This document shows, one piece after another, positions 48,140-59,865 of a stretch of DNA of 64,000 nucleotides; the stretch's first letter is position 1; every line of letters starts with the position of its first letter. The translations under genes and the position numbers were made by a program. A model generated the notes under the pieces. The model was given only the letters and a program-made list of their open reading frames with translations, was not told where the DNA came from and ran no database searches. The stretch lies in the NCBI GenBank assembly GCA_963707645.1, contig CAVPQW010000008.1, positions 3,547 to 67,546 on the forward strand, written 5' to 3'. This stretch comes from an uncultured Actinomycetes bacterium. Its GTDB lineage: Bacteria > Actinomycetota > UBA4738 > JACQTL01.

Positions 48140-49834
48140 TCAGGCGCCCCCGGGGGTGCAGATCGCCCCGCGCGCGGCGGTGGAGACAAGGCTCGCGTAC
48201 TTGGCCAGGGCGCCGGTCGTGTAACGGGGCTCCGGGGCCTTCCAGCCGTCCCGGCGGCGGGCGAGCTCGGCATCGTCGACCTCGAGGTCGATGCGGCGGG
48301 CGTCCACATCGAGCACGATCGTGTCGCCGTCCTCGACCAGGCCGATCGGGCCGCCGACGGCGGCCTCGGGGGCGACGTGTCCCACGGCGAAGCCGTGGGA
48401 CGCGCCGCTGAAGCGCCCGTCGGTAACCAGGGCGACGTCCCGGCCGAGACCGGCGCCGACGATGGCGCCGGTCACGGCCAGCATCTCGCGCATCCCCGGC
48501 CCGCCCCTGGGGCCCTCGTAGCGGATCACGACGATGTCGCCCTTCCGGATCCGTCCGTGGGTGACCGCGTCGAAGGCGGCCTCCTCCGAGTCGAACACGC
48601 GCGCCGTCCCCCGGAATCCCCGTCCCTCCATGCCCACGACCTTCACGACCGCGCCGTCCGGGGCGAGGGAGCCCGTGAGCACGGCCAGGCCGCCGTGTGC
48701 ATGGATCGGCGAGCCGAGCGGCCGGACGACGTCGCCGTCCGGTCCGGCGGGATTCAGCTCGGCCAGATTCTCGGCGACGGTCCTCCCGGTGACGGTGAGG
48801 GCGTCGCCGTGCAGCAGCCCGGCGTCGAGCAGCTCCCGCATCAGCACGGGAACGCCGCCCACGCGGTCGAGGTCGCTCATGACGAACCGCCCGGCGGGGC
48901 GAACGTCGGCGATGTGCGGCGTCCGCCGGCTGATCCGGTCGAAGTCCGCCAGCTCGAGGTCGACATCCGCCTCCGCCGCGATCGCCAGCAGGTGGAGCAC
49001 CGCGTTCGTCGATCCGCCGCACGCCATCACCACGGCGATGGCGTTCTCGAACGCCTCCCGGGTGAGCACGTCGCGGGGGCGGAGCCCTGCCTTGAGGCAG
49101 GCCACCGCCGCCGCGCCGGACGCGCGCGCGAACTCGTCCCTCCGCGGGTCCACCGCCGGCGGACCCGCGGACCCCGGCAGCGACATGCCGATCGCCTCGG
49201 CCGCGGTGGCCATCGTGTTCGCCGTGTACATCCCGGCGCACGATCCCGGTCCGGGGCAGGCGAGCGATTCCAATTCGTGGAGCTCCTCGTCGGTCATCCG
49301 GCCCGCGGCGTGCGCGCCGACGCCCTCGAACACGTCCTGGATCGTGACGTCGCGGCCCTGCCAATGGCCGGGCAGGATCGTGCCGCCGTACAGGAACACC
49401 GACGGGAGGTTGAGGCGGGCGGCGGCCATGAGCATCCCGGGCAGGCTCTTGTCGCAGCCGGCGATCGTGACCATGCCGTCCATGCGCTCGGCATGCATCA
49501 CGAGCTCGACGGAGTCGGCGATGACCTCGCGGGACACCAGCGACGCGCGCATCCCCTCGTGGCCCATCGCGATGCCGTCGGACACCGCAATCGTCGTGAA
49601 CTGGATCGGCACGGCGCCGGCGTCGCGCGCGCCCGCCTTCGCTTGCAGCGCAAGGCGATCGAGGTGCACGTTGCAGGGAGTGACCTCGTTCCAGGACGAC
49701 GCGATTCCGACCTGGGGCTTGTCGAAGTCCTCGTCGCCGAACCCGACGGCGCGGAGCATGGCGCGGGCGGGCGCGCGCTCGGGGCCATCGGTCACGTCGC
49801 GGCTGCGCGGGCGGGTGGGGTCGCTCGTGGTCAT
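48140..49834 (-). CDS. ilvD: Dihydroxy-acid dehydratase
   Basis: 564 aa, intact. [13 protein letters not shown]..., [45 protein letters not shown]. Confidence 0.95.
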
Positions 49835-55059: not shown

Positions 55060-55134
55060 GCGGGGCCCTTCGTCGAAGTATCGAAAGCGAGCCCGGGCCA
55101 TGCGTGCCCTGTATCGTTCGTGTCGAGGTATCAG

Positions 55135-55704
55135 ATGCCGAGCGCACATGAGTCCGTCACGGCGACCTCTTCAGCCACGAAGCGGGAGCGCATCCTCATC
55201 GCGGCCCACCGTGGAGAGGGAATGGATTCGCCCGGCGACCAGCTCACCGCTCTGCTCGACGCGGCGAACGCGCTCTCGCGGGCGTCGATCCCGTACGCGC
55301 TGATCGGCGGGATCGCCGTCGGAATCCACTCTCAGGTACCGAGGGCCACGCAGGACATCGATGTCGCCGTGCCTTCCACGGCGTCACGTGAAGCGATCAT
55401 CACCGCTCTCCAGTCCCAAAGCTTCGAGCTCGTGGGCGAATTCCCCCACAGCCTCAACCTTCGGCACCCGAACGGGGAGCGCGTTCAGGCTGCCATCGAT
55501 CCGCTCTTCGACGAGATGATCGAACGGGCGGAACAGGTCGTCGTCGGGGGGACATCGATCCACATCGTCACCGCGGCGGACCTCCTTGCGATGAAGGAAC
55601 GAGCTGCTGCTGATCCGGCACGGAGGCGGAGCAAGGCGCTCCGTGACCAGGCGGACATCGAATTGCTTCGCGGTGACGTGCCCGATCCGGACGAAGGCTG
55701 GTAG
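55135..55704 (+). CDS. Nucleotidyltransferase-fold protein (stand-alone, MNT/DUF2204-like)
   Basis: ORF 55120..55704, ATG 55135 with GAGG upstream. IPYALIGGIAVGIHSQVPRATQDIDVAV matches the G-G...D-x-D polymerase-beta NTase motif. LLAMKERAAADPARRRSKALRDQADIELL is the C-terminal helix typical of such proteins. Confidence 0.55.
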   Translation: MPSAHESVTATSSATKRERILIAAHRGEGMDSPGDQLTALLDAANALSRASIPYALIGGIAVGIHSQVPRATQDIDVAVPSTASREAIITALQSQSFELVGEFPHSLNLRHPNGERVQAAIDPLFDEMIERAEQVVVGGTSIHIVTAADLLAMKERAAADPARRRSKALRDQADIELLRGDVPDPDEGW

Positions 55705-55821
55705 CCATGCGGCCGGACGGTCGCTAGCAACCGGTTGCCCGGTCTGGTCGACTACGGCTACGATCGCCGCACAACCGAATACGCAAACGTCCTCCGGTTC
55801 CTGTAAAGCCGGAGGGCGAGA

Positions 55822-55928
55822 GCCTCATCCAGAGAGGTGGAGGGACAGGCCCTGTGAAGCCTCGGCAACCCCGGACTGCGGGGTGCCAATTCCTGCCGGT
55901 GGTGATCGAGCCGCCGGAGAGATGAGGG
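55822..55928 (+). promoter_or_regulatory. SAM-I (S-box) riboswitch aptamer
   Basis: CUCAUCCAGAGAGGUGGAGGGACAGGCCCUGUGAAGCCUCGGCAACC...GGUGCCAAUUCCUGCC...GGAGAGAUGAG matches the S-box consensus almost box for box. Downstream lie a weak hairpin plus T-run (55962-55983) and an SD-sequestering hairpin CCTCCTC(55995-56001)/GAGGAGG(56010-56016). Confidence 0.85.
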
Positions 55929-56021
55929 GAGTTCTGAGACTTCGGAGGCTCGTCGGCACACAAGCCGGCGGGCTTCTTTCGTTCCTGGGACTGCCCTCCT
56001 CGGGCTCATGAGGAGGACGCC

Positions 56022-57257
56022 ATGTCGCGTTACCTGGAAGGACTGCGGTGCCGGGCCTGCGATGCCCGCTACCCGGCCGAGGTTCGTTCGATCTGCGACG
56101 AGTGCTTCGGGCCGGTCGAGCCGTTCTACGACGAGGAACGCCTGCGCGCCGAGATCTCGCGTGAGGAGATCGCCGCTGGGCCCCGTTCCCTGTGGAGATA
56201 CGAGGCGCTGCTGCCCGCCACCCGGAACCCGGACGTCGACCTCGGGGATGGGTGGACTCCGCTCCGGCACGCCAAGCGGCTCGGCGCCGAGCTCGGGCTT
56301 CCGAACCTGTGGCTCAAGGACGAGACGCGGAACCCGACGCACTCGTTCAAGGACCGGGTCGTCTCGGTCGCGCTGACCAAGGCGGTCGAGTTCGGCTACG
56401 GAACCGTCGGGTGTGCGTCGACCGGCAACCTGGCGAACGCGGTTGCCGCCCACGCCGCGGCCGCCGGACTGCGAGCGGTCACCCTCGTGCCGCAAGGCCT
56501 CGAGCCGGCCAAGCTCACGGCGTCCGCCGTCTACGGCGCCACGCTGGTCGAGGTCGACGGGACCTACGACGACGTCCAGCGGTTGTGTTCCGAGGCCGAC
56601 GAGGAGCTCGAGACGTGGGCGTTCGTCAATGTGGGCCTGCGGCCGTACTACGCGGAGGGTTCCAAGACGATCGCTCTTGAGACCGCGGAGCAGCTCGGCT
56701 GGCGCGCGCCCGATCACGTCGTCGTGCCGGTCGCCTCCGGCGCGCTGCTCACCAAGGTCGCCGAGGGGTTCCGCCAGCTCCATCGCGTCGGCCTGCTCGA
56801 CGAGGAGCCCAACGTCCGCGTCTCCGGCGCCCAGGCGCAGGGCTGCTCCCCGGTCGCCTCCGCGTTCCTCGAGGGAAGCGACGAGGTGCGGCCCGTCCGC
56901 TACCCGGACACGATCGCGAAGTCCTTGGCGATCGGCGCCCCGGCCGATGGCTACTTCGCGCTGGACGAGGTCCGTCGCTCGAACGGCGCGCTCGCCGCCG
57001 TCACCGACGACGAGATCGTCGAGGCCGTCGGCCTGCTCGCCCGCACCGAGGGCGTCTTCGCGGAGACCGCGGGCGGCGTGACGATCGCCACGCTCCAGCG
57101 ACTTGCCTGTCTCGGCGTGGTCAAGCCGGACGAGACCGTCGTCGCGTACATCACCGGGATGGGACTGAAGACGCTCGACGGCTTCGGAACGAGGTTCGGC
57201 CTCGAGGCCACGATCGGCCCGAAGCTCGAAGCGCTCCTGGAGGCAGTCCCCGCGTAG
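56022..57257 (+). CDS. Threonine synthase-like PLP enzyme with N-terminal zinc ribbon (possibly MetM-type homocysteine-forming enzyme)
   Basis: 411 aa, intact. CRACDARYPAEVRSICDECFG zinc ribbon, PLP-lysine motif NPTHSFKDRV, and GCASTGNLANA. It lies directly behind the SAM-I riboswitch. Confidence 0.85.
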   Translation: MSRYLEGLRCRACDARYPAEVRSICDECFGPVEPFYDEERLRAEISREEIAAGPRSLWRYEALLPATRNPDVDLGDGWTPLRHAKRLGAELGLPNLWLKDETRNPTHSFKDRVVSVALTKAVEFGYGTVGCASTGNLANAVAAHAAAAGLRAVTLVPQGLEPAKLTASAVYGATLVEVDGTYDDVQRLCSEADEELETWAFVNVGLRPYYAEGSKTIALETAEQLGWRAPDHVVVPVASGALLTKVAEGFRQLHRVGLLDEEPNVRVSGAQAQGCSPVASAFLEGSDEVRPVRYPDTIAKSLAIGAPADGYFALDEVRRSNGALAAVTDDEIVEAVGLLARTEGVFAETAGGVTIATLQRLACLGVVKPDETVVAYITGMGLKTLDGFGTRFGLEATIGPKLEALLEAVPA

Positions 57258-57362: not shown

Positions 57363-57842
57363 ATGGCAGCCACCGCCGAGAAGGTCCGGAAGCTCCCCGT
57401 TCCGAAGGCTCCGAAGGCTCCGGACGTCGTCATCAACAGCGTCGAGATCACCATCTCGATGGCGGCGCCGTTCGTGTTCGGCGTTCCGCTGCGGCTGGTG
57501 AACTGGCTGCTCGTACGCCTCGGCCTGGTCACGAAGGACGAGCTGGCCGCCATGATCGAGCCTGAGGCAACCGTCCCCGCAGTCGAGTCGCCAAGCCCGC
57601 CGCCAAGCCCCGGACGGCAAAGCCTCGCGCGGCCTGTCCGGAGAACGCCGCCGACCGACCGTCAGCGCAGCCGACGAAGCGCGACCACCGCCACGTCGTC
57701 CTCGGCCCGGCCATCCGACGACGCCGCCGCGCCGGCGATCGCGTCCGCGAGCTCGTCCGCGGACGACCAATCGAGCGACACGAACGAGCGTCCATCGCGC
57801 GTTCCTCTGCGAGGACATCGCGGGTCTCGATCCCGTCCGTGA
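57363..57842 (+). CDS. Small hypothetical protein; 3' end uncertain
   Basis: ATG 57363 with GAAGGAGG RBS, inside ORF 57333..57842. MAATAEKVRKLPVPKAPKAPDVVINSVEITISMAAPFVFGVPLRLVNWLLVRLGLVTKDELAAMIEP looks genuine. The Pro/Ser/Arg-rich remainder overlaps the convergent phosphatase gene by about 180 nt and may result from a frame error. Confidence 0.4.
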   Translation: MAATAEKVRKLPVPKAPKAPDVVINSVEITISMAAPFVFGVPLRLVNWLLVRLGLVTKDELAAMIEPEATVPAVESPSPPPSPGRQSLARPVRRTPPTDRQRSRRSATTATSSSARPSDDAAAPAIASASSSADDQSSDTNERPSRVPLRGHRGSRSRP

Positions 57843-59865
57843 ACGCGACCATCGCGTCGCCCGGCGAGAGTTCGATGACGCATTCGAGGAACTCCACCCG
57901 GTCCCACACGCCGAGGATGGGGCCGTGCGCGCCGACCAATGATCCACGGCCGTCGGGGGCCACCACGACGGGCCGAGGGTGTCCCGCCAGGGCGATCCGG
58001 ACGTGGTGCCGGTCGCCGTCCATGTCGAGCCGGAGGACGCAGGCGGTGACGAACCGCTCGCCGAGATCGTCCTGACGAGGGCGTCGTTGACTTCGCGGAG
58101 CAGCTCGCTGGGACTCTCGATGCGCCGGGCGAGCGCGTGCAGGGTTGCCCTGGCCTTGCCCATCACGGCCGCCGCCTCGGGGCCCGCGCCCGCACACGTC
58201 GCCGAGCGCGATCATCGCCGACCTCGGGCCGATCGACACCACGTCGTAGAAGTCGCCGCCGACCTCGGTATCCTCGCCGGCCGCCACGTACCGCCCGGCA
58301 ATCTCGTACCCGTGGACCTGCGGCAGCGTTCCCGGCAGCAGGCTCCGCTGGAGCACCTGGGAGATATGCCGCTGCGACTCGAAGAGCGAGGCGTTCTCGA
58401 TCGACCGCGCCACCCGGTCGGCGAATTGCACCGCGAACTCGACGTCGTCGGGTCCCATCTCCAGGCCCGTCGGTCGAGTTGGTCAGGGAGAGCGCGCCGA
58501 TCAGGCCTCGCACGCCCTGCAGGGGAACGATCAGCCCGGACCGCGCGCGGAGGTCGCCGACCTTGTGGACCAGTTCGGCGGCAGGCCGAGCTCGCACCAT
58601 CTCCTGCTCGGTGACCTCGCGGATCGCGACCGGTCGGCCGGTCCGCATGGCCTCGGCGAATTGCGACGCCGGATGGTTCGGTCGCGGGACGTACTGCTGG
58701 AGGATCTCCTCGATGCCGCCGGCCGCGTTCGGAGTCTCGGTGGGCCGTCGCGCTGCAGCTCCATGCAGGTGGCGTCCGGCCCGAGGTACAGGATGGCGTG
58801 CTCGCAGTAGAACTGGACCGCCAGCTCCAGGATCGACTGCAGCGTCTCGTCGTAGTCGATCGAGTCGGCGAGGCGCCGCCCGGCCGTTCGCCAGGACGTC
58901 CAGTCGAAGCCGGTTCGCCTCGGCCTCGGCGCGCGCCTCGCGTTCGATGGTGTACATCCGCGCGTTGTCGAGCCGGACGGCCGCGCGCCGCGCGAGCTCC
59001 TCGGCGACGGACGAGCTCGTCGTCGCCGTACCGCCGTTCCGGGTCGCACGAGACGAACGTCAGCGTCCCGAGGATGTGGCCCGCGCTTCGAGCGCGACGC
59101 ACATGAACGAACGGAACCCGAGCTCCTGGTGATCCGGTAGTGCTCGTCGTCGCGGGTGGTGCCCGCAGGAACTCCGGGCGTCATGTCCGCGAGCGATTCG
59201 GCCACGCCGGTCCGGATGACCCGCGACACCGGATGCTCGCCCCCGGCGAAGAGGCGCGTACCGGTTCGGAGCAGGTCGGCAAGGTCCTGCTTCGCGGGTC
59301 GCGGTGAACTGCGGCGACCCGGTCGATCCCGCCGTCCGTCGTGCGCACGTCGATCAGGCACAGGTCCGCGAAGTCCCCCACCACGAGCTCGCGCGAGCTT
59401 GGTGAACGTCGCCGGATAGTCGAGCGACAGGGCGAGCAGCTCGCTCGCCTGCGATACGAGCTCGAGCCGCTGCCGCGCGACGCGGGCCTCTTCGAGGGCG
59501 AGGTCACGCCGGCGGAGCACTTCCGACACCAGCACGGCGGTGGCGCGAACGCCGCGAGCGCCAGCGCATCCTCACGCGGTCAGCCCGAACCCATGGCCGG
59601 GCGGGATGAAGTAGTAGTCGAGCAGCGCTGCCGACAGGACCGTCGCGACCAGGCCCGGGATCCACCGCCCGAGCAGCGCGGCGACGAGCACCGCCATGAA
59701 GTACGGGATCGAGGGGAACTGTCCCACCGAGGTGTGGAGCGACAGCAGCGTCGCGAGGATCGGGAGCACGATGGCGGCCGCGATCCCCGCAGCGAGCCGG
59801 GGCTCCACAGGGAGCCGGCGTCGCTGCGCGGACTCGCCGAACCGGAATGGGCGCTTCGAGTCCAT
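57662..59865 (-). pseudogene. DUF4118-GAF-GAF-PP2C (SpoIIE-type) sensor phosphatase; about 10 or more frame breaks as assembled
   Basis: Ordered pieces: ORF 59572..59865 (membrane DUF4118-like), then 58531..59535, 59181..59507, 58212..59102 and 58163..58957 (two GAF-like regions), then 57529..58458, 55758..58166 and 57662..57907 (PP2C: GGDFYDV...GDVCG.G...DGI..., ending DDVAVVALRRLR). Confidence 0.75.

Follow-up and report, generated by a model that had tools for sequence, protein, structure and literature searches.

A SAM-I riboswitch ahead of a probable MetM-type homocysteine synthase gene without an adjacent sulfur carrier gene in an uncultured actinobacterial lineage

Why would a gene that reads as a threonine synthase be placed behind a riboswitch for S-adenosylmethionine (SAM)? 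The question is raised by a locus at positions 55822 to 57257 of a 64,000-nucleotide (nt) stretch of contig CAVPQW010000008.1 (the window), from the genome of an uncultured actinobacterium (assembly G000, 3.42 Mb in 16 contigs, 69% complete), in which a SAM-I aptamer precedes an open reading frame (ORF) for a 411-amino-acid (aa) enzyme of the threonine synthase (ThrC) family. The initial annotation had compared this arrangement with MetM and MetO of Streptomyces and an associated riboswitch, and the comparison has been borne out: MetM and MetO of Streptomyces albulus, with Mec and MoeZ, convert O-phosphohomoserine to homocysteine (Hasebe et al. 2024, as summarised in bioRxiv 10.1101/2024.10.14.618325), and a SAM riboswitch of S. 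albulus metM is mentioned in PMC12172450. Our data make it very probable that 56022-57257 encodes a MetM-type homocysteine synthase under translational SAM-I control. The protein would catalyse the pyridoxal 5'-phosphate (PLP)-dependent exchange of the gamma substituent of O-phosphohomoserine for a sulfur nucleophile. The homocysteine so formed would be methylated to methionine by MetH. The aptamer and the gene comprise the following features.

55822-55928, plus strand: SAM-I (S-box) aptamer, full RF00162 model, stem P1 formed by 55823-55829 with 55921-55927.
56022-57257, plus strand: metM-type gene, 411 aa, fold-type II PLP enzyme and zinc-ribbon paralogue of ThrC, according to family matches and tree placement.
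56049-56105, plus strand: N-terminal zinc ribbon (C10, C13, C25, C28), a predicted carrier dock according to clade conservation and a complex model.
56349-56351, plus strand: codon of K110 (S-F-K-D-R motif), the predicted PLP Schiff-base lysine according to its invariance and to alignment with the solved ThrC 2ZSJ.

The aptamer was recognised by RF00162 (SAM-I) over model positions 1-108, with 88.9 bits against a gathering score of 44.4 (E 8.6e-20, cmscan), at exactly the coordinates where a textbook S-box had been proposed. It was the sole Rfam match in the window and the only SAM-I element in the G000 assembly; no SAM-IV element was found in G000 or in two relatives. Its position in the 5' leader of the metM-type ORF, 93 nt ahead of the start, and the mutually exclusive pairings that this leader can adopt agree with the class assignment, and the leader would be expected to bind SAM and to adjust expression in response. 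Comparisons were extended to 40 genomes of the same order as G000, of which G001-G003 are the other three of its genus; the unpublished genomes G005, G021, G031, G034 and G040 were counted only in the tallies of thrC-like genes and SAM-I matches over these relatives. Twelve of the 13 SAM-I matches so obtained lay directly upstream of the orthologous gene, the thirteenth being a second copy in G015 (G015:C4:97832-97939). At the other SAM-I locus of G015 (L020, on G015:C69), a 359-aa ORF separates the MetM gene from the SAM-I element.

The 411-aa protein scored 251 bits with PF00291, 274 bits with the thrC model TIGR00260 (cut-off 167) and 283 bits with PRK08197, the latter below its cut-off of 303. 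Together with a four-cysteine motif, these matches agree with the zinc-ribbon PLP enzyme of the threonine synthase family described in the initial annotation. Database relatives of the protein come from uncultured Actinomycetota and are labelled threonine synthase. TIGR00260 also accepts proteins of the MetM clade according to the GapMind authors (bioRxiv 10.1101/2024.10.14.618325).

Most of the 40 genomes of the order contain two thrC-like genes above cut-off. The first type (A) is matched by TIGR00260 over about 950 nt with about 300 bits and lies, in G001, G007 and G012, in an argS-hom-thrC-thrB-rho cluster (hom 519 bits, thrB 205 bits). The second type (B), to which the window gene belongs, is matched over about 980 nt with 254-292 bits. 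Against the solved ThrCs 2ZSJ, 2D1F, 1UIM and 6CGQ, type A proteins obtained 429-463 bits and the window protein 178-190 bits. A wider context set was built from one scanned genome per species, yielding 80 loci from Actinomycetota, Chloroflexota, Cyanobacteriota, Acidobacteriota, Nitrospirota, Aquificota and archaea. In a quick maximum-likelihood tree, with branch support from the Shimodaira-Hasegawa-like approximate likelihood-ratio test (SH-aLRT), the 90 type B members stood apart from type A with supports of 97 and 100. Within this clade, the window gene grouped with those of G001 and G007 (SH-aLRT 100), nested with the MetO-linked genes of G030 and G004 (100), whose products are its nearest MetO-linked relatives (74% and 71% identity, respectively). 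The same clade contains the gene of Streptomyces griseoincarnatus (L100), which has both a SAM-I element upstream and a carrier gene downstream; the window gene is therefore orthologous to a riboswitch- and MetO-linked Streptomyces gene, and not to characterised ThrC in a hom-thrC-thrB context, from which it differs by both clade and surroundings. This placement supports the attribution to the methionine branch made in the initial annotation.

The context of the clade as a whole points the same way. A carrier ending in PAVAGG is encoded directly downstream of the enzyme in 60 of the 90 members, and a SAM-I element, scored by cmscan for 34 loci and by nhmmer for all, is present upstream in 55, including most of the actinobacterial genes. 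A carrier of about 90 aa with this same ending is encoded immediately after the type B genes of G030 and G004. At the protein level, 105 positions are conserved throughout the clade and the 411-aa protein retains all of them except three. K110 is invariant in the MetM clade and in canonical ThrC alike, whereas about 30 positions are conserved within the clade yet different from ThrC, including a change from GNA to ASG and residues of the substrate loop. The zinc ribbon (C-x2-C-x11-C-x2-C) is likewise a mark of the clade, its cysteines being conserved in at least 98% of the 90 members and the whole segment being absent from canonical ThrC.

Two other groups of genes related to this clade were observed. 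A third ThrC-like paralogue with a zinc ribbon of its own (PRK08197 542 bits, 34-37% identical to MetM) is encoded at L110 (G001:C5:1308562-1309536) and L111 (G007:C11:260966-261940); it is present in nine relatives at E <= 1e-30, including G001-G003, and was not found in G000. In sister families within the order (G012, G038, G009, G018 and G026; loci L018, L019, L021, L022 and L024), the MetM-clade gene lies just downstream of ilvD, and both the SAM-I element and a neighbouring MetO gene are missing. The ilvD of the window (48140-49834, minus strand) is about 6 kb away from the metM-type gene.

The need for such an enzyme was evaluated from the remaining methionine genes of G000, G001, G007, G004 and G030; three of these genomes have a completeness of 94%. 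MetX and MetA went undetected in all five, and none of their PF01053 enzymes reached the MetY cut-off, while MetH was present in this survey. Given the lack of MetX and MetA in these related genomes, MetM is probably the only source of homocysteine in the lineage. In that case, O-phosphohomoserine would be the branch point between threonine and methionine.

If the enzyme is MetM-like, where does its sulfur come from? The initial annotation had noted that no carrier gene with a Gly-Gly end follows, and this was borne out: no ThiS/MoaD-like carrier is encoded downstream of the enzyme gene or elsewhere in the window, and the ORF starting at 57363 has no family match. An adjacent metO is likewise absent from G001 and G007. 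Neither the G000 assembly nor G001, of the same genus, encodes a MetO-type carrier; only the CysO type was found. The suggestion that a carrier might be encoded elsewhere proved sound. The only MetO-like carrier of G000 is a protein of 92 aa (C2:243978-244253) that ends in AVAGG and is 49% identical to the MetO of G030. Its gene belongs to a cluster on contig C2 (C2:242859-245530) with the order JAMM protease, MoeB/UbaA-like E1 enzyme, carrier and CysM (TIGR01136, 351 bits), so that the genome does encode a carrier with a Gly-Gly end, an E1 and a JAMM protease. The E1 gene is split by a frameshift in G000 and is intact in G001, where its product has no rhodanese domain. Sequence signature and context make the C2 carrier an orthologue of the CysM-linked carriers of G001, G007, G030, G004 and G012, and not of MetM-linked MetO.

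A similar situation recurs elsewhere. Genomes with an adjacent MetO gene have one more carrier than genomes without it, and only the CysO type is kept in the latter, as in G001, G007, Lentzea, Asanoa, Actinomycetospora and Actinoplanes. In these four cultured genera, a stand-alone, riboswitch-controlled metM coexists with a carrier gene located in a mec-cysO-cysM operon, while Streptomyces has both carrier types. MetO adjacency changed at least six times across the clade tree, and an adjacent metO can therefore be regarded as typical of the family but not as defining it. The initial proposal that the lack of a neighbouring metO makes the locus a distinct pathway variant is not supported; stand-alone metM with SAM-I is common in cultured actinomycetes. 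A survey of ten orphan metM loci showed no conserved alternative partner downstream. A third carrier type, ending in ISGG, was observed as the N-terminal domain of a frame of about 450 aa (L113 3783-5144 in G001; also L116, L119, L120 and L121), and tblastn searches did not find it in G000.

These data suggest that the lineage lost the dedicated metO that normally follows metM, and that sulfur most likely reaches the enzyme as the thiocarboxylate of the CysO-type carrier made by the JAMM-E1-CysO-CysM cluster on C2. The carrier would dock on the zinc ribbon of MetM and place its Gly-Gly tail in the active site. Modelling of MetM in complex with the C2 carrier supports such docking. The model reached a score of 0.72, against 0.00 for the best of three controls, and the runs agreed on at least 91% of contacts with a partner pLDDT (predicted local distance difference test) of at least 86; 58 of 80 solved complexes also attained the mark used, as did 2 of 110 mismatched pairs. 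In the model, the carrier tail (residues 86-91) and the 55-69 loop contact the zinc ribbon (12, 23-31), the helix 183-194 and the substrate-loop residues 203-207 of MetM. Relative to the family consensus, the MetM proteins encoded in the window, G001 and G007 carry L32V/I, N186Q and N205G, all three positions being at most one residue from the modelled interface (post hoc probability about 0.007), and the carriers of the same three genomes show D64G and L70G, carrier residue 64 being modelled against MetM residue 187. Enzyme and carrier may thus have co-adapted after the loss of metO. As the interface changes amount to one evolutionary event, they should be taken as a lead and not as a test. 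On balance, we put the chances that the CysO-type carrier is the sulfur donor of MetM at about even. The wider proposal is that, in this genus and in other lineages with an orphan metM, one CysO-type thiocarboxylate, matured by the JAMM protease and activated by an E1 without rhodanese domain, feeds both CysM and MetM through docking on the zinc ribbon; it is tentative and falls slightly short of an even chance.

Another possible explanation is that the enzyme takes free sulfide, or a small sulfur donor, directly and acts as an O-phosphohomoserine sulfhydrylase that dispensed with any carrier after metO was lost. No carrier gene is linked to metM in the genus or in several cultured actinomycete families, and Na2S was used to mimic the MetM reaction in vitro (PMC12172450), which both speak for such an enzyme. 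However, orphan genes still conserve the zinc ribbon together with the remaining residues predicted to contact the carrier, every orphan genome examined retains a CysO-type carrier system, and the curated description of MetM makes it dependent on the MetO thiocarboxylate. Direct use of sulfide is accordingly somewhat unlikely, and we prefer the CysO-type carrier as donor.

The way in which SAM may act on the gene was examined in the region between aptamer and start codon, where the following features were recognised.

55785-55821, plus strand: 5' leader before the aptamer, with a possible transcript start near 55785 (weak hint).
55913-55940, plus strand: 5' arm of an anti-sequestor (3' strands of P4 and P1, and linker), pairing with 55981-56005 in the ligand-free fold.
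55944-55977, plus strand: conserved 14-bp hairpin present in both conformers and followed by a poor U tract (UUCGUU).
55981-56005, plus strand: 3' arm of the anti-sequestor, containing the anti-Shine-Dalgarno (anti-SD) box CCUCCUC (55995-56001), from constrained and free folds.
56010-56016, plus strand: Shine-Dalgarno (SD) sequence GAGGAGG, 5 nt before the ATG at 56022.

The SAM-bound state was approximated in folding by enforcing the aptamer pairs, and the SAM-free state by an unconstrained fold. With the aptamer enforced, CCUCCUC at 55995-56001 paired with the SD at 56010-56016 (-112.1 kcal/mol) and the SD had an unpaired probability of about 0. In the free fold, 55994-56001 paired instead with the 3' strand of P1 (55921-55928; -114.9 kcal/mol) and the unpaired probability of the SD rose to 0.23-0.88. 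The small energy gap between the two folds suits a ligand-driven switch. Both pairings had been predicted in the initial annotation, as a 7-bp helix sequestering the SD and as an alternative use of its 5' strand, and both were recovered, the boxes of the helix being invariant in the six relatives over which conservation and covariation of the platform were judged. In these relatives, 92-94% of cells in the anti-sequestor arms are paired, with one compensatory pair. The hairpin had been described as weak, which is not the case: its 14-bp stem (55944-55957 with 55964-55977) shows compensatory changes at four pairs and 96% of cells paired. A terminator scan catches only its tip, as a 5-bp version at 55962-55975.

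The folding results indicate that the leader acts as a translational OFF switch. Binding of SAM would close P1 and leave CCUCCUC free to pair with the SD, blocking initiation; in its absence, 55913-55940 would pair with 55981-56005 and free the SD. SAM-I control of the metM-type gene would thus be mainly translational. It could be argued that the riboswitch works mainly by premature termination, either intrinsic at 55944-55977 or Rho-dependent early in the ORF, with SD sequestration only secondary. The hairpin is strong and conserved and a pyrimidine-rich tail follows it, and in the more distant relatives G004 and G008, which lack an anti-SD box, the same hairpin precedes a U tract of better quality. 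However, the hairpin is formed in both the SAM-bound and the SAM-free fold and cannot alone be the regulated element, its U tract is poor, and neither the anti-SD nor the SD box shows any variation within the genus. The hairpin is better read as a scaffold; its role as a SAM-regulated intrinsic terminator was judged unlikely, and control mainly through termination of either kind is improbable. Sequestration of the SD remains the preferred mechanism for the window locus.

Environmental libraries gave additional information on the leader. Contigs from three soil RNA libraries matched 55785-56034 with 0-1 differences; two began at 55785 and the third extended further upstream. In two runs the RNA contigs ended at 56034, 13 nt into the ORF, whereas a DNA contig continued past this point, which hints weakly at a short and abundant leader RNA and would also fit termination. 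At high identity, the RNA-library contigs left the body of the ORF uncovered, which is not taken as evidence here; pieces with 90-95% identity come from other organisms. The DNA runs contained only 0.25-0.42 of the sampled words. Close relatives are present in soil metagenomes, and nothing narrower on habitat or strain follows from these data. A scan for sigma-70-like promoters, which is uninformative for Actinomycetota, found none near the leader.

Several observations weigh against the interpretation defended here. The 411-aa protein passes the equivalog cut-off of the NCBI thrC model, and a cyanobacterial member of the clade, from Microcystis, has been reported with threonine synthase activity in vitro (PMC12172450). 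The link to a characterised enzyme goes via the Streptomyces locus of matching context and not via the S. albulus MetM sequence. The window gene is the only thrC-like gene above cut-off in G000, and thrB is absent from this 69% complete assembly, so that both the supply of O-phosphohomoserine and the existence of a separate ThrC have to be deduced from genomes of the same genus. As to the carrier, the complex model may succeed through likeness to a solved complex of the CysM-CysO type, and the test also admits close cousins of a true partner. As to the switch, the SD/anti-SD helix never varies in the six relatives and is for that reason without covariation support, and the lack of an anti-SD box in G004 and G008 shows that the platform was remodelled within the order.

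The composition of G000 deserves particular attention, a sole thrC in the genome having been named in the initial annotation as a finding that would speak for a threonine enzyme. This is formally what the assembly contains, and incompleteness would explain it. Queries with hom, thrB and argS of G001 gave nothing in G000 (tblastn), which suggests that the whole cluster is missing from the incomplete assembly; canonical ThrC and homoserine kinase, not found in G000, are both present in G001 and in G007. The sole thrC and the missing thrB were consequently rejected as evidence of a ThrC role, the flanking argS and hom being missing too. At four Rho-like loci of G000 (C5:83207-84991, C1:19868-21682, C15:7722-9493 and C10:57358-59148), identity to the G001 rho located after thrB is only 30-51%, and the orthologue of that rho seems to be absent along with hom-thrC-thrB. 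That the gene is a genuine second threonine synthase incidentally under SAM control, as the TIGR00260 score, its solitary occurrence in G000 and the Microcystis activity might suggest, is very improbable, since same-genus and sister genomes have a canonical thrC beside hom and thrB, the clade separates from ThrC and shows some 30 group-specific differences from it, most of its members are linked to MetO, no other homocysteine route was found, and shutting down threonine synthesis at high SAM would make no regulatory sense.

The gene directly upstream of the riboswitch (55120-55704, plus strand) encodes an AbiEii/DUF6036-like nucleotidyltransferase (PF08843, 33.8 bits) and may be a toxin-antitoxin remnant. 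Downstream, the ORF at 57363-57842 (plus strand) starts 106 nt past the metM stop behind a very strong SD (GAAGGAGG) and has no Pfam or NCBIfam match. G001 (L015 2400-2624, minus strand) and G006 (L124 1755-2063) share its first 67 residues or so within a protein of about 100 aa; the window frame extends into low-complexity sequence, perhaps through an indel error. As it is not consistently linked to metM, although conserved in these two genomes, this ORF was rejected as a partner. A GAF/PP2C phosphatase gene (SpoIIE-type, GGDFYDV; 57529-59865, minus strand) is broken into at least three frames, while an intact orthologue of 823 aa exists in G001 (L015 2606-5077). Split frames were also noted in G000 for MetH (C6:4116-7665), for a PF01053 gene (C5:160940-162050) and, as mentioned, for the E1 of the C2 cluster; all these breaks resemble indel errors of long-read sequencing.

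The window gene is an incremental addition to a pathway, that of MetM, already described in 2024, and the new, testable points are limited to the shared-carrier hypothesis and the zinc ribbon as carrier dock. For annotation, this gene and thousands of relatives are carried as threonine synthase, and its interpretation as MetM fills the gap in the methionine pathway of a soil actinobacterial lineage without MetX or MetA. Orphan metM genes raise the question whether CysO of the cysteine pathway can serve MetM. If so, both sulfur amino acid pathways would be coupled at one carrier, through which all amino-acid sulfur would pass. The predicted contact between zinc ribbon and carrier would also give a testable role to the domain that separates MetM from ThrC.

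Compared with MetM/MetO of S. albulus, the locus shares a ThrC-like PLP enzyme gene behind a SAM riboswitch, with the JAMM protease and E1 encoded elsewhere in the genome, and the window protein is 53% identical to that of the riboswitch- and MetO-linked Streptomyces locus L100. It differs in the absence of an adjacent metO from a genome with a CysO-type carrier only, in an E1 without rhodanese domain, and in the three substitutions near the modelled interface. With canonical ThrC (TIGR00260; 2D1F, 1UIM, 2ZSJ, 6CGQ), the protein shares the fold, the S-F-K-D-R motif, the S-T-G-N loop and a likely substrate, O-phosphohomoserine. However, it carries an extra zinc ribbon, is only about 38% identical to the lineage's own ThrC, and is encoded in a separate clade under a SAM riboswitch and outside hom-thrC-thrB.

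In Mycobacterium tuberculosis, Mec, CysO and CysM form a thiocarboxylate route to cysteine. The C2 cluster likewise holds a JAMM protease, a carrier with a Gly-Gly end and CysM, and follows the same principle of a carrier-served enzyme; unlike that system, it includes the E1 gene, and its carrier is proposed to serve MetM also. In plants, O-phosphohomoserine is the branch point at which cystathionine gamma-synthase and threonine synthase compete, both being tuned by SAM. The same metabolite would be common to both branches here, and SAM would again lower the methionine-branch enzyme, but the enzymes and mechanisms are unrelated: in the actinobacterial lineage a riboswitch would act on a ThrC paralogue that inserts sulfur directly, without cystathionine.

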